The position numbers and the translations under genes are program-made. DNA of 64,000 nucleotides from Rhodospirillaceae bacterium (GTDB lineage: Bacteria > Pseudomonadota > Alphaproteobacteria > Rhodospirillales > JABJKH01): the NCBI GenBank assembly GCA_018660465.1, contig JABJKH010000041.1, forward strand, positions 6,650-70,649, written 5' to 3'. The notes beneath the pieces are model-generated. The model saw only the letters and a program-made list of their open reading frames with translations, was not told the DNA's origin and did no database searches. Shown here in pieces: positions 27,315 to 56,086 of this stretch. The first letter of the stretch is position 1; each line of letters opens with the position of its first letter.

Positions 27315-28061
27315 CTACTTCGGCAAAAATGGCTTGAATTGACTTCTTGTGCGACCGCCTTTCCCGAGGCCGCCCGGTCGGTCCAGACTGGGTCGGTCTA
27401 GGCTGGGTCGATCTAGGCTGGGTCGGTCCACGCTGGGTCGGTCTAGGGGACGGGCAATGGGGCTGGGCTTCTCTTCGGTTCGTTGACCTGGCGCAAGATG
27501 CACCGTCCCAATTGGGGAAGCTTCTGCAGAAACCTTCTTCGAAGGGTTCCAGGAGGCGACGGTGACGGCTTTGCCTTCTTGGGTGCGCATGAGCTTAGGC
27601 TTCACGACTTGGTCTACGGCAGGGGTATTGTCGGCGCGGGTAAACGACAACATCATCTCATCCAAGGTGATCTCACTCCGCTTACCGACTTTAATCGCCT
27701 TCTTAAACGCCAGCGTTCCGTTGCAGAGTTTATTCAATCGGTCTGCTGACATGTTGCCGAAACGCCGCCAAATGTTCTCAAGAAAGCTTTCCACATCAAT
27801 CGGCAGGAACAATTCGGCTTCTATATTGGGCCGTCCACGGGTGAAGGCGCGATAGATGTTAGGCTCCAACGGCCCGACTTCTTCGGCAATAAACACGGCA
27901 GGCATTAATTTTTGGCCCTCATAAGCCACAGCAAAATAGGCCTGCGCCAAAAACAAAAGCCGGTGCAGCTTTTGGGGTTGCAGGTACTCGTTATTTTCCA
28001 GCGCCGTGTCGCTGAACCAAAACGCAATATCAAAACTGGAATCAACAGCAGACCGCATCAA
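27315..28061 (-). CDS. Panacea/DUF4065 (GepA/SocA-like) domain protein with C-terminal (L/V)DRPS pentapeptide repeats
   Basis: The N-terminal region ...LQPQKLHRLLFLAQAYFAVAY... resembles the DUF4065 antitoxin-type domain. The C-terminus reads PLDRPSVDRPSLDRPSLDRPSLDRPGG. Confidence 0.6.
   Translation of the reverse strand: MMRSAVDSSFDIAFWFSDTALENNEYLQPQKLHRLLFLAQAYFAVAYEGQKLMPAVFIAEEVGPLEPNIYRAFTRGRPNIEAELFLPIDVESFLENIWRRFGNMSADRLNKLCNGTLAFKKAIKVGKRSEITLDEMMLSFTRADNTPAVDQVVKPKLMRTQEGKAVTVASWNPSKKVSAEASPIGTVHLAPGQRTEEKPSPIARPLDRPSVDRPSLDRPSLDRPSLDRPGGLGKGGRTRSQFKPFLPK
27376..27450. repeat. 15-bp tandem repeat, about 5 copies (GGTCGGTCYAGRCTG)
   Basis: Read directly from the sequence: ggtcggtccagactg / ggtcggtctaggctg / ggtcgatctaggctg / ggtcggtccacgctg / ggtcggtctagggga. 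It encodes the pentapeptide repeat of the Panacea-domain gene. Confidence 0.9.
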
Positions 28062-28294: not shown

Positions 28295-30619
28295 ATGGTA
28301 GTTGTGCTGGTAAATCGCATGCGAGAATATTTCCGGAACCGGTACAAAGCTACAACGACTGCTATTCGCAGTTGGACCAAGATAGCAAAAAGGAAGATTC
28401 GGGTTGGGTACGCACACCTATGGCATAGGTTTTATTTCATTCGGAGCTGGTTAACTCGCCTGTTATTACGCCACAGCGGGATTGCAATTTTTTCTTTACT
28501 GATCGTTCTTTTCACAATCTCAGCCTTCTGGCTTCCTGAAACTCAAGTGGCGCTTCAACCTAACTTCGCTACAACCGAAAGTCTGGGAAGTTTTAGATCC
28601 TTGATACTCACCATTGGGGGGGCGTTAATAGGAGCGACTGCTATCGCGTTCACTCTCGTCATGTTTGCTATTCAAGTAAATATCGAACGCATGCCTCATG
28701 GATTATTTCGCAAACTAAGCTCAGACCGTTACTTACTCGGTGCATTCGGCATCACATTTTTACTCGCCATCACAATTGCAACACTATCTATGATTCCCGA
28801 CAAGTCTTGGGTCGCCGTCGCTGTTTATGGAACAGTCTGGGGAACCTTTTTGGTTCTGGGCCTGTTCCTTTATGCTTATCGTCGCGCCCTGTCCCTTATT
28901 AATCCCATTCAGCAACTAAACTTCATCGTAGAAGCCACCCAAAAAGATTTTCGGCGCTGGGTACGTAACGCGCAACATGCTGCGCCAATTCTTGAAGAAA
29001 TTAGTAATGAGCACGCCGACCCGACATTAGAGACTCAATCTACTTACGACTTAGAGCGGTTTAAGTATTTTCAAATTAACCCGCACTGGAGCAATCAGGC
29101 GCAAAACGCCATTTTACATGCTATTACTTTTGCTCGACGTTATGCGGAAGATGGTGACTATGAAGTCTCTGGTGCTGCGTTGACGGCAATAGTGGGTATT
29201 AATGCTGGGTATATCGAAGCGAAGGGAAAAACCTTTGTTGCCCAAAACCCTTTGATCAATAATTCACTCTCCACTGACGGATTTATCAACGTAACATTAG
29301 AGCATTTACGACAAAACTTGCACATTGGAGTTGAGCGCGGTGATGAAAACCAAATAGAGCAAACGTTACAGACCATAGCACAACTTGCTAAATTGTATCT
29401 GAGAATTGACTACTCTCAAGAATTCGAAACTAAAACACACGCAAATCTTGCCGCTAGCTACCTTTCCGGGTCAGCAAAATCAATATTGCCAAAGGTCATG
29501 CCTGATGTGCTAATGGAATGGATGCGTCTTATGGGCCAAACTGCGCAACTTTTCATTCTTCAGGCAGATCACAATGATATTAGAACACTGACCGAAAGGA
29601 TTGGCATGATCGCAGGAGCCTGCGCAACCAAAGATGACTACCGCCCAGTTACCCAAGTTGGCGTTGAGCAGTTGACGAATTTAACGAAAAACTTAATCTA
29701 TAGTGAGCACCACGACGTTAGATATGCTTTGGAAGACGTAAAAAGAAACATCAATTTTATTGCAGAATTTTTATTCGCCGTACCTGAGACGCTACTCAAT
29801 AAAGTCCTCAGCACAAATATGGGTCCGTATTATTCAGGAACTACTCCTGATAGTTTTCTTCAATGGCTTACCGACCTTGCCCATGCGCTTTCTGAAAATT
29901 CAACAAGCGATGAACGCTGCCAAAACATTATCCGAAAAATTGAGGAATGGGCTCAGAGTTTATCTAAAACAGAAAAAGAATTATTTCTGTTATCCATCAA
30001 GAATAAATCATTTTTTACATTTGATATCATTCACTGGATTTCCAGTATCACAAAACTTCTTTTGTTTATTTCAAATACTAAGTCTTGTCCTGAGCACACT
30101 CGTGAGGAACTTAAAAAGCACGCACTCTGGCTTGTATCAGTATTGACCTGGATTCCAGATAACAATGAATCCGTGAGGCACGTGGAAAATTTTTCGGTGA
30201 CAGAAATACTTTTTGATGTAGCGTTAGATTCTAACCAACGAGAATTTGAGGAATTTTCCCTGCAAGTTGGCAAAATTCTTTTATCATGGGGCTTCAAGGG
30301 TGGAAAATACGGGTCGGGCTGGGGAACACTAGATAAATCAATATATGGGCTTGCTGCTCTCGCTATTATCAGAAAAGAAAAGGTATTTGGAGAACAACTA
30401 AAAAAAGAAATTTCAAATCGGCAAAACAGTAAGGACGCAGTGGGACAGGAGATATGTGACATCGCCGCTCGAAATATTCGAGATAAGGCTGCAACACTTT
30501 ACCAGCAGGGATATAGCCACTCACGCATTGATAATGTAATGCACTCAATTGACCATGAGCAGTTGGCCCCATTACTCAATGAAATCGCAGATATTCTCTC
30601 GCCGCCCGTCGCGGAATAG
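28295..30619 (+). CDS. Orphan 774-aa protein: N-terminal ~4-TM membrane anchor plus large helical cytoplasmic region, function unknown
   Basis: Long uninterrupted ORF in an AT-rich stretch, with hydrophobic helices within roughly the first 200 aa. I could not find a Walker A, HExxH or other catalytic motif by eye. The start could instead be the ATG at 28319. Confidence 0.6.
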   Translation: MVVVLVNRMREYFRNRYKATTTAIRSWTKIAKRKIRVGYAHLWHRFYFIRSWLTRLLLRHSGIAIFSLLIVLFTISAFWLPETQVALQPNFATTESLGSFRSLILTIGGALIGATAIAFTLVMFAIQVNIERMPHGLFRKLSSDRYLLGAFGITFLLAITIATLSMIPDKSWVAVAVYGTVWGTFLVLGLFLYAYRRALSLINPIQQLNFIVEATQKDFRRWVRNAQHAAPILEEISNEHADPTLETQSTYDLERFKYFQINPHWSNQAQNAILHAITFARRYAEDGDYEVSGAALTAIVGINAGYIEAKGKTFVAQNPLINNSLSTDGFINVTLEHLRQNLHIGVERGDENQIEQTLQTIAQLAKLYLRIDYSQEFETKTHANLAASYLSGSAKSILPKVMPDVLMEWMRLMGQTAQLFILQADHNDIRTLTERIGMIAGACATKDDYRPVTQVGVEQLTNLTKNLIYSEHHDVRYALEDVKRNINFIAEFLFAVPETLLNKVLSTNMGPYYSGTTPDSFLQWLTDLAHALSENSTSDERCQNIIRKIEEWAQSLSKTEKELFLLSIKNKSFFTFDIIHWISSITKLLLFISNTKSCPEHTREELKKHALWLVSVLTWIPDNNESVRHVENFSVTEILFDVALDSNQREFEEFSLQVGKILLSWGFKGGKYGSGWGTLDKSIYGLAALAIIRKEKVFGEQLKKEISNRQNSKDAVGQEICDIAARNIRDKAATLYQQGYSHSRIDNVMHSIDHEQLAPLLNEIADILSPPVAE

Positions 30620-30663
30620 ACAATTTTAGCAACCGTAGGATTTTGGTTAGGCCTGATACGTCC

Positions 30664-31197
30664 CTACCCCTGCGGCGTCAAATTCAGTGTCCGAATAAAA
30701 ACCTGCATGCCGTAGTTGATGGTCATGTAGTTGCCGAGTTCCATGATTTGGGCTTCGGAGAAGTGGGTCTTACCTTCGTCGTAGAACGCCTTATCGACCT
30801 TTGCGGGTTCCCGGTACATCAGGTAGCCGTAGCGGAACGCCCATTTGTGGGCGTCGCTAAACTGGGGTTCGTTTTCAAAGTCGCCACAGGCAGCCTCAAT
30901 CAATTCTTCAGTCAGGCCCCGTTTCATGGCCTTCTTCGATCTGAGGGAGGCGAAGTACTTGTCCCCTGCCAGCCTGGCCAACTGAATGCGAATGGCTTCT
31001 TTCAGGCGCACGTCCAAGCCACCGTTTTCATACGCCTGGCGCATGGCGTTGAACAGGGCCTCGGCATAATTGGGCGCGTGAGCCAACACCTCAAAGAACT
31101 GCTTATCGGCAATCCCCAGGTCTTCGGCCAAGGCCATGTATTCCTTAATCTTCGGCTTCTCTAAGTTTTCAGCCGGCGCGGAGTCAATGTAAGCCAT
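30664..31197 (-). CDS. Carboxymuconolactone decarboxylase (AhpD-like) family protein, Cys-less paralog
   Basis: 177 aa, colinear with the neighbouring AhpD-like selenoprotein. KEAIRIQLARLAGDKYFASLRS aligns with KEIIRIQLSRHAVCNYUGNVRS. Confidence 0.75.
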   Translation of the reverse strand: MAYIDSAPAENLEKPKIKEYMALAEDLGIADKQFFEVLAHAPNYAEALFNAMRQAYENGGLDVRLKEAIRIQLARLAGDKYFASLRSKKAMKRGLTEELIEAACGDFENEPQFSDAHKWAFRYGYLMYREPAKVDKAFYDEGKTHFSEAQIMELGNYMTINYGMQVFIRTLNLTPQG

Positions 31198-31212
31198 AGA
31201 GTCTCTATCTTC

Positions 31213-31869
31213 CTATTCAGCAGCCGAGTCGGGCGCTAAATCTAAAGCGCGCTCCATCGCCCCTTCGGTGTGGGATATTGGCGTCGTGCCATAGATTTCT
31301 TTTGATTCTTCCTGGCTGACCAGCCGTCCGTCCGGCGAGAACATCGGATAGAAATCCAATGTCCCAAAGAACGTGTGGAAACCAATGTTAACGCCAATGT
31401 AGGTGCCGAGCTCGACAATTTCTTCCGACGAATAATACTTTTTCAAGTCGTCGTAGAACGCTTCGTCGATCTTGTCTAAATCCGACGCCATGTATTCGCT
31501 ATAACGCAGCGCTGCCTTTTCGGCATCGGTAAACCGGTCGCTGGCTTCATAGTTATTGATGCCTTCGTCGATGTCTTCTTCCGTCAATCCTTGCTGCTTC
31601 GCCGAAGCAGACCGCACGTTGCCTCAATAATTACAGACGGCGTGCCGGGACAGTTGGATTCGAATGATCTCTTTTAGCTTGTGATCGACCACGCCGGAAT
31701 TAAACACCGTGCCCCACGCCACATACATGGCTTCGGACAGGTCCGGGTTGTGGCCCTGCATGGCATGGAACGCCGGGTCCGGCGCACGGTGCTTCAGGGC
31801 CTTCTTAATATAAGGCGCAAGCTTGGTCTTATTCAGCTCATCGATATCAAGCATCGAAATATTAGGCAT
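31213..31869 (-). CDS. AhpD-like (carboxymuconolactone decarboxylase family) predicted selenoprotein with C-x-x-U motif (TGA at 31624-31626)
   Basis: ORFs 31624-31869 and 31213-31617 share one frame and are separated only by TGA. The joined sequence is ...LSRHAVCNY-U-GNVRSASAKQQGLTEEDI.... It aligns with the downstream paralog across the stop, and the CxxU sits where AhpD has CxxC. Confidence 0.8.
31594..31610 (-). promoter_or_regulatory. Candidate SECIS hairpin for the AhpD-like TGA
   Basis: On the minus-strand RNA the hairpin is CUGCUUC-GGC-GAAGCAG (perfect 7-bp stem, or 6 bp with a CGGCG loop). It begins 13 nt after the UGA. Confidence 0.4.
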
Positions 31870-32085
31870 TCAAGTTCCCCCCAGAATGCGGGTTAAGTAT
31901 GCGGTGTTAGGCATCCAAATCTATATACAACAGTATGGTTAATGCCCCGTATTTAGCAGAAGGAACTGTCCCCACACTGTCGTGAATCGCCGGGATGGTA
32001 ACCGAAGTGGATGATCGGGGGAAGAGGTTCTTTTTCACAAAGTCTTGAGGTGGAGTTTGAGACAAGATGGAGACTTTACTCAGGC

Positions 32086-32203
32086 CCTTCGAGACGCGCT
32101 CAAGTGAGCGCTCCTCAGGATGAAGTAATATTTAGGTCCATTGATACAAAGAAATTTTATTTAACTTCATCCTGAAGAGCGCGAAAATCGCGCGTCTCGA
32201 AGG
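32086..32203. repeat. Intergenic nested-palindrome element, copy 1
   Basis: Outer arms are CCTTCGAGAC (32086-32095) and GTCTCGAAGG (32194-32203). Inner arms are TCCTCAGGATGAAG and CTTCATCCTGAAGA around an AT-rich loop. Side hairpins are GCGCTCAAGTGAGCGC and GCGCGAAAATCGCGC. Confidence 0.9.
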
Positions 32204-32216
32204 ACGCGTCGCAAAG

Positions 32217-32732
32217 TTATCCCGAAACACCACCCCACCAGCGCTCAAGCGCTTCCACTTCCACCGGCAACACACCGCCCATGCCACCTGTCCGCTCCTT
32301 CCAAATCTCCAACGCCGTTTCAGGAACGCTGATCAGAAAGGGGATTCCGTCGCTAATCGCCAACATAATTTCATCAGACAAGCCGCGCCCTTTTTGCTCT
32401 TCAACACCGAATTTATCAAATACGATCAATTCGGCTTTGCTCTTAATCGCATCGCGCAGCACGCCGCTTGTCCCGACCAATACAGACGCATCAAGCGCGC
32501 AGGCGTTCTTATCGTAGTCATGCTTTGGAACTCTTTTAATAGGGCTGCGCGCGCCTGTCACAACATCAACCGCATCGATCCCAGCGTAAGTACCATCATC
32601 ATTAAGCACCTTTTCCTGCACCAACCCGGCGACCCGGACGCCGTGCTTTTTACGTTCCTCAGCAAATGCCGCCAAGAAGCCGACGCCGTTGGACCGCGGC
32701 GTGTAGACGACGGCAGCAAATGAGGGCCGCAT
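32217..32732 (-). CDS. DUF2478-like (THEP1/NTPase-related) protein
   Basis: 171 aa. The overall pattern (AGLVQE..., LIVFDKFG..E..G.G) recalls the DUF2478 family, but this is a from-memory match only. Confidence 0.45.
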   Translation of the reverse strand: MRPSFAAVVYTPRSNGVGFLAAFAEERKKHGVRVAGLVQEKVLNDDGTYAGIDAVDVVTGARSPIKRVPKHDYDKNACALDASVLVGTSGVLRDAIKSKAELIVFDKFGVEEQKGRGLSDEIMLAISDGIPFLISVPETALEIWKERTGGMGGVLPVEVEALERWWGGVSG

Positions 32733-32887
32733 TAAGGTTCTCTCCTCCGGGCTCGCGCGAATTGCATACTTATAACTTATTCATTCAGGGAACAGTATCA
32801 CCGAGTTGAAATCTGACTTCCTTGACCTACGTCACATGGGCGGTCAATTTCTCTGTTAAGTACATGGATGAAAGAAGGATACCCCCC

Positions 32888-33814
32888 ATGAGCGACAGCC
32901 AGATCATACTCCACCACTACCCGCAATCCCCGGTCAGTGAAAAAGTCCGGGTGGTGCTTGGTATCAAGGGGCTGGACTGGAAATCTGTGGAAATTCCAAG
33001 GCTGCCGCCGAAACCGAATTTGATGCCGCTGACCGGCGGTTATCGTTTAACCCCGGTGATGCAAATCGGTGCCGACATCTTTTGTGACAGCTTGGCGATT
33101 ATCCGCGAAATTGACCGCCGCCACCCGACCCCCACACTATTTCCCGGCGGCGCGGAAGGCATGGCCTGGGGTGTGGCGCGGTGGACCGATGGGCCGATGT
33201 GCAAGGATGTAACGACCATCGCCATGGTTGAGATGAGCGACACCATGCCAACAGAATTTTTGGCTGATCGTGGTCCGCTCTACTTCGGCGCGGATTTCAC
33301 CCTCGATGGACTCAAAGCCAAATACACGGAATCCTTGGTGAATGTTCGGGCACAACTTGGTTGGCTGAACGAACGGGTCGCGATCCGTCAATTTATGCTG
33401 GGGTCAGAGCCCGGCCTGCCGGATGCACTGTGTTATTATCTGGTCTGGTTCCTGCGCGATCGCATGGCCGAAGCCGAGCCGTTCTTATCACAATTCAAAA
33501 ATATCATTGCTTGGGAACAACGCATGAAAGATATCGGCCACGGCACTCCGGACGATATAAGCGATCTCGATGCCCTCGCTATCGCTAAGAATTCTACTCA
33601 CCAGACACCCGAACGCGCCGACCCTGGCGATCCGCAAGGCCTGAACGTTGGCGATAAGATTACGATTGAACCCGCCGACGGCGGCGTGCCGGTCGAGGGA
33701 ATTCTTCGAAATCTATCGGCCAGCACCATCGCCATTCTGCGCGAAGATGACCAAGTAGGCCAAGTCTGCGTTCACCTCCCCAGGCTGGGGTACCGGGCTA
33801 CTCGCGTTAGTTAA
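32888..33814 (+). CDS. Glutathione S-transferase family protein with extra C-terminal domain
   Basis: From the ATG at 32888 the product starts MSDSQIILHHYPQSPVSEKVRVVLGIKGLDW...TPVMQIGADIFCDS, a GST N-terminal thioredoxin-like fold. The ORF-track start at 32822 is probably too early. Confidence 0.7.
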   Translation: MSDSQIILHHYPQSPVSEKVRVVLGIKGLDWKSVEIPRLPPKPNLMPLTGGYRLTPVMQIGADIFCDSLAIIREIDRRHPTPTLFPGGAEGMAWGVARWTDGPMCKDVTTIAMVEMSDTMPTEFLADRGPLYFGADFTLDGLKAKYTESLVNVRAQLGWLNERVAIRQFMLGSEPGLPDALCYYLVWFLRDRMAEAEPFLSQFKNIIAWEQRMKDIGHGTPDDISDLDALAIAKNSTHQTPERADPGDPQGLNVGDKITIEPADGGVPVEGILRNLSASTIAILREDDQVGQVCVHLPRLGYRATRVS

Positions 33815-54868: not shown

Positions 54869-56086
54869 TCAAACGTGTTTCAACATTGCGTTCGGAACGT
54901 AGGCCGTTCGTCCCATTGTTTGCAGGGCCTCGGTCTCATGACCCAGGCACAGTTCCCGCAATTTGATGAACAGCTTTCCGGCAAGGGTTTCTCCGTAATA
55001 CCAATCACTGATTTGAACATCGGAAACACTTCCGGGTTTCGCCATTGCCGCCTGATAATAGAAATATTTCAGATCATCAGCGGTTAGCTTCAACGCACGG
55101 CCAATTGGCTGGCCTTCCATGAAGCTGTCGATGCTCGGGTCGTCAACAAAGCTAACTAGGAAATCGATGATCTCCTCGGGCGAATATTCGGTCAGACCAT
55201 CTAATCTCCGACCCTTAAAGTTCTTGATCGATTCTTCATACCACGGACGCAGCAGGACGACTTCTTGCTTCAAATCCAAGGCGAGTTTTTCTGCATCGCT
55301 TAGATCATTCTGTGGAGCCGCCAAGTTTACCGGGCAGGTCCAGCCTTCCATATCCGCCGGTGGCCCCGGAGGCGCATCGGGGAAATCTTCGATGAACGGC
55401 CCGTCATTGCGTTCGAGCAATTTAAGCGCACCCAACAGGACCCGGCGTTGAAAATCCGGCTCATTCGGCGCGCCAAACGGACGCCCCAGTTCAAACGGTA
55501 CGAACAGTGCCCGCGGTGGACGCAGGCCTTCGGTGTGTTTTCGGATCAAGCTGATTTGCGTCGTCGGCAAACCTTCGCGTTCCAAGTAGTGTGCCAGCCC
55601 GCCCACGGCGCGCGTGCATTGAGGTCAAACGCCAGCGAGGATAACCCCGGTCACGTTGTCACTTTTCAAAAGTCCCGCCAGATCCTTGGAAACAGCAGCA
55701 TGTGCCATCGGCGGTGTCGCCCCCATAAAGGCGTAATGATAGTCGGCAACTTCGCCAACATCGCCACTTGCTGCCAGTTCTCTCAAACGCTCAATCGGGA
55801 AGACAATGTTGAGGTCCTGTTGAAATCCCGTGCGATCAAAGTTGGTGGAAACGTGGCTCATGATCAGATCATCCATATCCGTATCGTTGGGGATGATTCG
55901 GTATTCACCGACACCTGGGGTGAATTCTTTATCTTCGCGGCGGTGCAAACCTGCCGTTGTAATGATCGCGACTTTTCGTTCGTTGAGCGCCGGGCCATCA
56001 GCGCAAGTTGTATCGTCATAATCAGGCAGATCCTGATTGACGATCATGTTGCGCTGCTTTTCCGGCATGTCTGATAAATGGGCCAT
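54869..56086 (-). CDS. GrdB/PrdB-like (glycine/sarcosine/betaine/D-proline reductase selenoprotein B family) predicted selenoprotein, U-x-x-C (TGA at 55625-55627)
   Basis: ORFs 55625-56086 and 54869-55606 are in one frame, and the 18-nt gap has no other stop. The joined sequence is ...NVTGVILAGV-U-PQCTRAVGGLAHYLEREGLPTTQ.... Family-typical stretches VAIITTAGLH, MSHVSTNFDRTGFQQD.N and FPIERLRELA are present. Confidence 0.75.
55592..55618 (-). promoter_or_regulatory. Candidate SECIS stem-loop for the GrdB-like TGA
   Basis: On the minus-strand RNA, UGCACGCGCGCC-GUG-GGCGGGCUGGCA can form an interrupted GC-rich stem of about 11 bp with a GUG apical loop. It starts 6 nt after the UGA. It was folded by eye only. 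Confidence 0.3.

Follow-up and report, generated by a model that had tools for sequence, protein, structure and literature searches.

A conserved two-gene cassette combines a predicted CxxU selenoprotein of the AhpD/CMD fold with a paralog lacking the redox residues

Introduction

Does an in-frame TGA terminate a gene, or does it encode selenocysteine (Sec)? This question is raised by a minus-strand reading frame in a stretch of 64,000 nucleotides from a Rhodospirillaceae bacterium (contig JABJKH010000041.1, in the following "the window"), in which a gene of the AhpD/CMD type is interrupted by TGA and followed by a paralog. An earlier note on this DNA had proposed that the gene is read through the stop as C-x-x-U and that the neighbour is a redox-dead copy. 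Comparison with related loci leads us to the reading that both genes very probably form one cassette, composed of a SECIS-decoded CxxU selenoprotein (gene A) and a non-catalytic paralog (gene B). The knowledge added is modest and comprises a Sec-only clade, a fixed partner, a compact putative SECIS and a lead towards the debrominase Bmp8.

Results and Discussion

The features of gene A are the following:

31213..31869, minus strand: gene of subunit A, the proposed selenoprotein; one frame with 218 codons and a TAG stop, AhpD/CMD fold, PF02627
31624..31626, minus strand: in-frame UGA, proposed selenocysteine U82; TGA in 80 of 80 related loci and in the window
31624..31635, minus strand: C-N-Y-U redox motif (TGT AAT TAT TGA); Cys and Tyr invariant

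The upstream half of the gene, ORF 31869..31624 on the minus strand, finishes with HAVCNY. The TGA at 31626..31624 is followed by GGC AAC and then by an ORF starting with GTG (31617..31213), all in a single shared frame, and it is the sole interruption of the minus-strand frame 31869..31213. The split into two ORFs with only TGA and two sense codons in between had been reported before, and all coordinates check. The products of both genes match the Pfam family CMD (PF02627), the gene A protein with 34.8 bits compared to a cutoff of 23. Its residue pattern is E67-x11-C79-N-Y-U82-x3-R86.

Of 254 genome matches, 80 loci from species-representative genomes were examined in addition to the window. 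The in-frame TGA is present in 81 of these 81 sequences and Cys in none, which defines a Sec-only clade covering at least six lineages (Rhodospirillales, Hyphomicrobiales, Nitrospinota, Tectomicrobia, Acidimicrobiia and Burkholderiales). In the alignment of the loci, amino acids stay conserved and the codon periodicity persists across the TGA without a break. More distant relatives carry CxxC in the equivalent columns (59 representative clusters), and 10 clusters are N-terminal fragments that stop exactly at C-x-Y. The cassette also occurs in closed chromosomes, for example OZ243926.1. The survey of CxxC and CxxU among orthologs that had been suggested earlier thus places C-N-Y-U at the site of the CxxC motif, as the note had assigned it. 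Judged from the alignment, the conservation of the in-frame TGA is far beyond chance.

A lone in-frame stop in a metagenome-assembled genome (MAG) could result from a sequencing or assembly error or mark a pseudogene, but this reading is effectively refuted by the comparative data: the same codon recurs in 80 assemblies obtained independently from several phyla, the sequence to either side of it is under purifying selection, and the Sanger reads of 2005 and 2008 contain the TGA as well. Hardly more credible is a true stop that would leave two small genes of 81 and 134 aa next to the paralog. Gene callers and NCBI do split gene A, the C-terminal fragment being recorded as 'hypothetical protein HOB79_18415' (P0007), and the window has a GTG two codons past the TGA. 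Of 80 homologs, however, 56 have GTC, GTA or GTT instead of this GTG, while the surrounding G-N-V-R-S-A-S-A-K is invariant; the GTG is therefore no conserved start codon. Moreover, the internal stop is always TGA, whereas the terminal stop of gene A differs among the loci (TAA, TAG or TGA), and the paralog as well as the CxxC relatives run as one polypeptide through the TGA position. The two fragments are thus best regarded as one protein, as had been claimed, and not as halves that normally exist as separate genes.

An alternative code or near-cognate suppression might also insert a standard residue such as Trp or Cys at the UGA. In several database proteins, the U82 site is occupied by W, and the Sec assignment is drawn from sequence comparison. 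We consider this highly improbable nonetheless, since many of these genomes use TGA as the real stop of gene A and the triplet is hence no general sense codon there, while the W is a gene-caller artefact of short contigs. Sec is indicated instead by the frozen hairpin, which lies at SECIS distance from the UGA, by the adjacency of selA, selB and tRNA-Sec in other genomes, and by the Cys homologs. That gene A is a genuine selenocysteine-encoding gene is well supported, and insertion of Sec at the UGA is very probable. The consequence is mainly a correction of annotation: for hundreds of MAGs, public records give gene A as two 'hypothetical proteins' or translate its Sec codon as Trp.

The signal for such decoding would lie directly downstream of the UGA:

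31594..31610, minus strand: SECIS-like hairpin; 7-bp stem of 31610-31604 with 31600-31594, GGC loop at 31603-31601

The hairpin (CUGCUUC-GGC-GAAGCAG, 17 nt) has a perfect stem and a spacer of 13 nt to the UGA, exactly as noted earlier. Across the loci, 98.6% of the cells in the hairpin columns are paired. Pair 24-38 shows compensatory changes, with U-A in 56, C-G in 23 and U-G in 2 of the 81 sequences; one of its two bases falls on a synonymous site of a Ser codon, the other on a Gln/Arg site, and the U-G pairs are intermediates. It is the single covarying pair of the stem, and four invariant pairs speak neither for nor against pairing. Codons +6 to +10 have a synonymous entropy of 0, flanking conserved codons one of 1.5–1.9 bits; this freezing of four- and six-fold degenerate sites is confined to the stem-loop. 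RNAalifold finds the hairpin independently. Folded alone, the hairpin variants reach -8 to -10 kcal/mol with the exception of locus L060 (-2.8), and in the divergent locus L085 the hairpin is remodelled yet kept. As a single sequence, the 73 nt past the UGA fold no better than shuffles (z = 0.03), and the minimum-free-energy structure of this region differs from the hairpin. A search for Rfam SECIS families yielded no match, neither for the whole window at gathering thresholds nor for 301 nt at E values up to 10; the 301-nt search returned just a chance match to osmY. Of the SECIS prediction and covariation analysis proposed in the note, the covariation part thus gave support by RNAalifold and one covarying pair, whereas no Rfam model recognised the element.

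In bacteria, the apical loop of a SECIS lies 16-37 nt past the UGA and has a G within its first two bases, and for E. coli fdhF a minimal stem-loop of 17 nt, 11 nt past the UGA, suffices. Position and loop G's of the hairpin fit this pattern. Common with the fdhF SECIS is a stem-loop with loop G's within the coding sequence just past the UGA. Unlike fdhF-type elements, the element here consists of the 17-nt hairpin only; its loop is the GGC triplet, a bulged U is absent and the spacing amounts to 13 nt. It is near-identical across phyla, that is, nearly the same in Proteobacteria, Nitrospinota and Actinobacteriota-class genomes.

Constraint on the protein, or on translational regulation in the form of a pause site or mRNA stability element, could in principle shape the hairpin without recruitment of SelB. 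The encoded S-A-S-A-K-Q peptide is itself conserved, and the hairpin is small with a loop of only 3 nt and is missed by Rfam. Against this, degenerate sites are frozen inside the stem-loop only, and the covarying pair alters an amino acid (Gln to Arg) so that pairing holds. The paralog, devoid of UGA, has neither peptide nor hairpin, and position and loop G's agree with the bacterial SECIS pattern. We regard such a role as very unlikely. The comparative evidence supports that the hairpin behaves as a SECIS and predicts binding of SelB. As a bacterial SECIS, 31610..31594 would recruit SelB with Sec-tRNA(Sec), and UGA would be read as Sec. In that case, Sec insertion would depend on a naturally compact element that is evidently usable by diverse SelB proteins and could be of use in engineering.

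With respect to the Sec machinery, selA, selB and selD were not found among the 20 large ORFs of the window, and its 64 kb contain no tRNA, tRNA-Sec included. In two other genomes (loci L060 and L071), selA, selB and tRNA-Sec adjoin the cassette. The window also holds a second split gene of Sec type, which is PrdB-like with a UxxC motif and has Cys-bearing homologs. Indirectly, both observations suggest that this organism possesses the Sec machinery.

Downstream of gene A the following features were assigned:

30664..31197, minus strand: gene of subunit B, a 177-aa CMD-fold paralog without redox residues; starts 15 nt past the gene A stop
30952..30963, minus strand: D79-K-Y-F82, the counterpart of CxxU in gene B; DxxF conserved

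The alignment of B with joined A is gap-free over the stop (37% identity, E 2e-37), in agreement with the colinearity described before for 31197..30664. The description of the paralog as Cys-less was likewise borne out, D-K-Y-F standing in place of C-N-Y-U. DxxF occurs in 116 of 120 partner-lineage sequences and also in 19 representative clusters. Gene B is located directly downstream of A in 78 of 79 assessable loci, and the order A-B with 5-40 nt spacing is retained across phyla and likewise in divergent cassettes. A fusion of A and B in a single frame, with a full length of 426 residues, was found in a SAR324 MAG (locus L081), and fusions are also present among Betaproteobacteria proteins. 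For the three nearest CxxC relatives, no partner gene was detected. A scan for promoters and terminators (30400-32400) gave none on the minus strand and none above shuffle expectation. As side observations, genes A and B of the window stand in the same frame, and the database fusion protein is missing its first 84 residues.

These data suggest that gene B is an ancient paralog that would have lost both redox residues while keeping D-x-Y-F, and that its product is most likely a non-catalytic partner subunit of A. A physical association of A and B, to which synteny and fusion point, appears reasonably probable. Alternatively, the selenoprotein is real and B is merely a co-transcribed, diverged tandem duplicate with an independent role. 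For this speaks that tandem paralogs often persist without interacting, that CMD proteins are usually homo-oligomers, and that synteny and fusion are the whole basis of the proposed complex. Other neighbours, however, are not conserved in the way that order and spacing of A and B are, divergent cassettes have the same arrangement, independent fusions occurred in the same order, and the nearest Cys-form relatives have no partner. An independent role of B is thus the less likely reading, though it is the most serious of the alternatives considered here. With B as partner subunit, a conserved and sometimes fused redox-dead protein would suggest a hetero-oligomeric AhpD-like enzyme; in the searchable literature texts, we found no description of the partner gene, its D-x-Y-F, the fusions or such an arrangement.

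The selenoprotein itself is already known. Its family was published in 2005 from Sargasso Sea metagenomes as a 'CMD domain-containing protein' selenoprotein (Zhang, Fomenko & Gladyshev, PMC1088965) and again in 2008 in the GOS selenoproteome (Zhang & Gladyshev, PMC2398784). A 2026 review lists a 'CMD-like protein, PF02627, CxxU' (PMC13188914). CxxU motif and PF02627 are shared with gene A, and the published reads carry the block ...QLSRAADCNYuGNVRSASAKQQGLTEE... in the supplements of PMC1088965 and PMC2398784. Over 164 residues, the window protein shares 73% identity with a GOS read (E 4e-95), and both begin with MPNISM. Gene A is accordingly a member of this family. The Sargasso and GOS entries are short-read fragments, which tables and supplements list under 'candidate redox proteins'; taxonomic hosts and SECIS statistics of the family are not described in the searchable literature texts.

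The gene A protein stays below the cutoff of every NCBIfam model. The AhpD-like selenoproteins (COG2128/TIGR01926 'AhpD-like 1', NF053654 and NF041047) resemble gene A in belonging to the CMD/AhpD superfamily, in a CxxU motif with Sec in second position and in their abundance in marine metagenomes. Assignment to TIGR01926, the peroxidase-related enzyme named 'AhpD-like protein' in the 2026 review, was rejected at 30.1 compared to 81.8 bits, as was NF053654, the YciW-related (seleno)protein (67.1 bits, cutoff 310). The score for the GSU3128 family NF041047 is likewise far below the cutoff (21 bits, cutoff 110). By profile score, all three are sister subfamilies of the gene A family.

The catalytic signature of AhpD of the M. 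tuberculosis type is E-x11-C-x-x-C-x3-H. In the enzyme of M. tuberculosis, the second Cys (Cys133), whose place is taken by Sec in gene A, is the nucleophile. Gene A shares with this AhpD (1KNC, 1GU9) the fold class and a Glu 11 positions before the CxxC at a helix start, but the structural match is weak (TM 0.37-0.45, E above 0.2). An AhpD of the M. tuberculosis type was rejected, as E67-x11-C79-x2-U82 is present but the +4 position is an invariant Arg86 and not His. M. tuberculosis AhpD is, in addition, a single gene, in contrast to the hetero-paralog pair described here.

The AF2 model of a homolog (P0001) is all-helical with a pLDDT of 95.2, and Foldseek confirms the AhpD/CMD fold; helix 75-79 carries C-N-Y-U at its N-cap. 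Among solved structures, Bmp8 (PDB 6OHI / 6OHJ) matches best, with a profile E value of 5.5e-11 and the top Foldseek rank (TM 0.64/0.72); AhpD-type proteins are also among the nearest folds. Its C-M-Y-C aligns on C-N-Y-U at ~21% identity. According to a review (PMC5577590), two cysteines of this tetrabromopyrrole debrominase are oxidised to a disulfide in the course of its reaction. Like gene A, Bmp8 is marine and CMD-fold; it differs in using Cys instead of Sec and in having no dead partner subunit. At such identity, the function of Bmp8 is not transferable to gene A, and the likeness provides a hypothesis on the biochemistry of this family, to which no function has been assigned in twenty years.

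The product of gene A would be a 218-residue selenoprotein of the AhpD/CMD fold with a C79-x-x-U82 centre at a helix start. The conserved family Glu E67 precedes this centre, and Arg86, at the position of the His in M. tuberculosis AhpD, follows it. Taking the CxxC enzymes of the AhpD/CMD fold as a model, one would expect Sec82 to attack as the nucleophile and Cys79 to resolve the intermediate; the resulting selenenylsulfide would be recycled by an external thiol reductant. We infer from this analogy the chemistry of a thiol/selenol oxidoreductase, with a peroxide/peroxiredoxin partner or reductive dehalogenation as concrete candidates. More speculative, and in our view improbable, is an obligate heteromeric selenoenzyme of CxxU and D-x-Y-F pseudo-subunits that would catalyse a Bmp8-like, thiol/selenol-dependent reductive dehalogenation. 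If true, the Sec-dependent chemistry of the thyroid deiodinases would have a widespread counterpart in bacteria, namely in marine Rhodospirillales, Nitrospinota, SAR324 and others.

The neighbourhood of the 81 loci was analysed for conserved genes. Apart from gene B there is no universal neighbour, and neither ahpC nor a bmp- or halogenase-type cluster is among the conserved ones. Genes for a CoA-transferase III, an FAH-like protein and a class-III aminotransferase recur mainly in the Nitrospinota-like group and vary in position elsewhere; they were judged to reflect lineage synteny and rejected as a functional hint.

Results and Discussion

Coordinates and sequence were re-read, and the earlier note proved accurate in all details in describing a split gene with one frame around a TGA. 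The gene, its hairpin and the adjoining paralog are arranged as follows:

31869..31624, minus strand: N-terminal part of the Sec gene, ATG start, ending ...HAVCNY
31626..31624, minus strand: in-frame TGA, followed by GGC AAC
31617..31213, minus strand: C-terminal part, in the same frame as the N-terminal part and the TGA
31610..31594, minus strand: hairpin CUGCUUC-GGC-GAAGCAG, perfect 7-bp stem, 13 nt after the UGA
31197..30664, minus strand: partner gene, the next gene beyond the Sec gene

The joined product comprises 218 residues and, like the partner protein, matches Pfam CMD PF02627. A genome scan with one genome per species revealed a relative in 254 genomes, and the best 80 loci were analyzed (Rhodospirillales, Hyphomicrobiales, Nitrospinota, Tectomicrobia, Acidimicrobiia, Burkholderiales and unclassified MAGs). 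TGA stands at the Sec codon in each of the 80, and no Cys-form ortholog was found among these best 80 of 254, where an unbroken match should rank at least equally high. An independently initiated downstream gene is ruled out, since its GTG "start" in the window is GTC, GTA or GTT in 56 of the 80 sequences, the terminal stop varies between TAA, TAG and TGA, and the flanking residues G-N-V-R-S-A-S-A-K are invariant.

To find cysteine homologs, 1.84 billion cluster representatives were searched exhaustively with a profile, and the matches were realigned to it. CxxC occupied the Sec-motif columns in 59 clusters (e.g. C-E-Y-C-G-N-Q-R-S), CxxW in three and DxxF, the partner lineage, in 19; ten further clusters were N-terminal fragments whose last residues are exactly C-x-Y. 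Judged by alignment, this is the classical Sec/Cys relationship. Conserved UGA, CxxC homologs and the constrained hairpin together support the selenoprotein reading put forward earlier.

Protein searches returned mainly C-terminal fragments of 120–140 residues starting with MRSASAK, together with a few "full-length" proteins with C-x-Y-W-G-N-V-R-S, where W results from a gene caller applying the TGA=Trp code to the contigs. In the database proteins P0001–P0005, P0009 and P0019, public calls from short metagenomic contigs, the Sec codon is rendered as Trp (CNYW). Such variants are a database artefact of apparently full length and able to mislead Sec/Cys surveys.

The perfect 7-bp hairpin noticed earlier 13 nt past the UGA was confirmed, and its stem was found unaided by RNAalifold in an ungapped alignment of 81 sequences. 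Standard pairs fill 98.6% of the stem cells, compared with 25–68% when the 3' arm is shifted by 1–3 columns. The strongest signal is the freezing of synonymous sites: third-position entropy is 0 at codons +6 to +10 after the UGA (GCU UCG GCG AAG CNG; 80 distinct sequences) and 1.5–1.9 bits at the equally conserved Gly+1, Val+3, Arg+4, Gly+12, Leu+13 and Thr+14. Four of the seven stem pairs show no variation. One pair covaries, with U-A in 56, C-G in 23 and U-G in two of all 81 sequences (50, 21 and two over 73 distinct rows). On its 5' side the base is the synonymous third position of a Ser codon, on its 3' side the middle base of a Gln/Arg codon, and pairing is thus maintained at an amino-acid cost. 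Both the U-A and C-G states occur inside Rhodospirillales and inside Nitrospinota, so the switch was not one single inherited event. Folded alone, all variant hairpins take on one common shape with energies of −8 to −10 kcal/mol, with the exception of that of the alphaproteobacterial locus L060 (−2.8); a G·G-mismatch variant gains an extra base pair at the stem foot. Locus L085 has a divergent hairpin, GCUGCUU-CGUGC-AAGCAGC, and there the peptide reads R-A-A-S-C-K-Q. The 73-nt region around the hairpin did not fold better than shuffles, and the Rfam SECIS models matched neither the hairpin region nor the window. The geometry of the hairpin, a 17-nt stem-loop with G's in the loop and 20 nt between UGA and loop, fits the published bacterial SECIS pattern and is similar to that of the minimal E. 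coli fdhF element. These observations support the conserved 17-nt hairpin as a putative SECIS, near-universal among the loci.

The neighboring paralog was thought to be colinear across the stop and Cys-less there. Its alignment with the joined Sec protein is indeed gap-free (37% identity, E 2e-37), with D-K-Y-F opposite C-N-Y-U. Of the 79 loci with sufficient sequence, 78 have this DxxF paralog beginning 5–40 nt past the Sec-gene stop, and at the single locus without it just 523 nt of contig remain beyond the TGA. Across the loci, no universal neighbors besides these two cassette genes were found. Retention of D-x-Y-F in 116 of 120 partner sequences argues that the partner is not decaying, and even highly divergent DxxF proteins have a Sec-type gene before them. 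The three nearest CxxC relatives examined are standalone, with no partner. In a SAR324 MAG (L081) both genes form one 426-codon frame, in the order CNY-TGA-GNVRS domain with the same hairpin, linker of ~45 residues and DPYF domain; comparable fused products are encoded in MAGs of Betaproteobacteria. From conserved order, tight spacing and repeated same-order fusion we infer that the two subunits would form a physical complex. The partner gene was not mentioned in the literature that could be searched. P0097, a chimeric protein of 201 residues from a 795-bp ENA contig, joins a partner-type N-half (…GDPYFAHLRS…) to a Sec-subunit-type C-half (…FIGFNIGYHTFFGTLKFYPMFAPDGRLVSQEES…) and is either a tandem-paralog recombination or an assembly chimera.

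Further genes flank the cassette in the window and in the SAR324 MAG:

27315-28061, minus strand: SocA/Panacea-domain protein, just past the partner gene
28295-30619, plus strand: DUF2254-like membrane protein of 774 residues, just past the partner gene
32217-32732, minus strand: DUF2478/NTPase-like gene, upstream
32822-33814, plus strand: GST-like gene (GST_N_3, GST_C_2), upstream
L081 3557-5518, opposite strand: Metallophos/5'-nucleotidase-C (UshA-like) gene of 653 residues, just upstream of the fused cassette

The first two resemble an insertion of toxin-antitoxin or defence type and are not conserved beside the cassette in other loci. A GST adjoining a selenol/thiol oxidoreductase is suggestive; neither it nor the DUF2478/NTPase-like gene is a conserved neighbor at the other 80 loci. 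A "COG0737 UshA-like, CxU" selenoprotein family is included in the GOS paper (PMC2398784).

The 64-kb window contains no tRNA gene, and selA, selB and selD were absent among 20 of its large ORFs. Two related loci and a second split gene, revealed by an in-frame TGA scan of the window, compensate for this absence:

L060 2326-5838, divergent from the cassette: selA-selB-tRNA-Sec operon, alphaproteobacterial MAG
L071 7819-11561, convergent with the cassette: selA-selB-tRNA-Sec operon, Burkholderiales MAG
56086..54869, minus strand: PrdB/GrdB-like gene, TGA at 55627..55625

At L060 and L071, ARAGORN placed tRNA-Sec (anticodon UCA) beside the cassette, and Pfam identified the adjacent ORFs as SelB and SelA (SelA E 1e-153 to 1e-156); the flanks of no further locus contained these genes. 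The PrdB-like gene reads A-G-V-U-P-Q-C around its TGA, and the joined protein of 405 residues matches PF07355 (GRDB) and TIGR04483 (PrdB) across it. In the majority of homologs the split falls on this codon too, and remoter full-length relatives have V-C-P-N-C-T-R at that site. The RNA downstream showed no significant fold by itself (z = 0.91). By its sequence the gene belongs to "PrdB" (UxxC), a marine selenoprotein family already in the literature. Within 64 kb, the organism thus has at least two genes of Sec type.

The CMD selenoprotein also has published relatives. The 2005 Sargasso Sea selenoproteome paper (PMC1088965) lists AACY01716242 and AACY01688758 as "CMD domain-containing protein" (...QLSRAADCNYuGNVRSASAKQQGLTEE...) within a CMD family of four sequences (Pfam02627, CXXU, "candidate redox protein"), and a 2026 review (PMC13188914) still carries "CMD-like protein, PF02627, CxxU". 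The GNVRSA/NYUGN block appears verbatim in the supplements of PMC1088965 and PMC2398784, and one GOS read (PMC2398784) shares 73% identity with the window protein across 164 residues. Novelty is accordingly limited to another member of a family published twenty years ago. Added here are the obligate conserved partner with its fusions, the quantified 17-nt putative SECIS, the selA/selB/selC linkage in two genomes and the relationship to Bmp8. Against the AhpD-like selenoprotein models NF053654, TIGR01926 and NF041047 the window protein scores far below the cutoffs; by sequence, these represent sister subfamilies. The window family itself stays below the cutoff of every current NCBIfam model, and this accounts for its annotation as split "hypothetical protein" entries.

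A full-length homolog with W at the Sec site was modelled with AlphaFold2; the model is confident (pLDDT 95.2, pTM 0.90) and all-helical, and a short helix has CxxU at its N-cap. By sequence profile and fold, the closest solved proteins are Bmp8, PA0269-type AhpD, 2PRR and D. radiodurans AhpD, whereas M. tuberculosis AhpD is merely a distant match. The window family keeps a Glu 11 residues ahead of the Cys; its invariant Arg takes the place of the catalytic His in the signature of M. tuberculosis AhpD. Most likely, Sec82 would act as nucleophile and Cys79 as resolving residue, forming a selenenylsulfide. The C-M-Y-C of the marine debrominase Bmp8 aligns on C-N-Y-U (E 5.5e-11; TM 0.64/0.72), and according to a review (PMC5577590) its two cysteines are oxidised to a disulfide during bromine removal. 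Reductive dehalogenation is therefore a concrete candidate activity, albeit one of low probability.

The Sec subunit has a conserved C-terminal extension, F-Y-P-M-F-x-P-D-G-x-L-x-x-Q-x-E-x-x-x-I-Y-G (31216-31350, minus strand; residues ~172-218), which is missing in the partner, whose end is near residue 177, and may serve as an interface or substrate lid.
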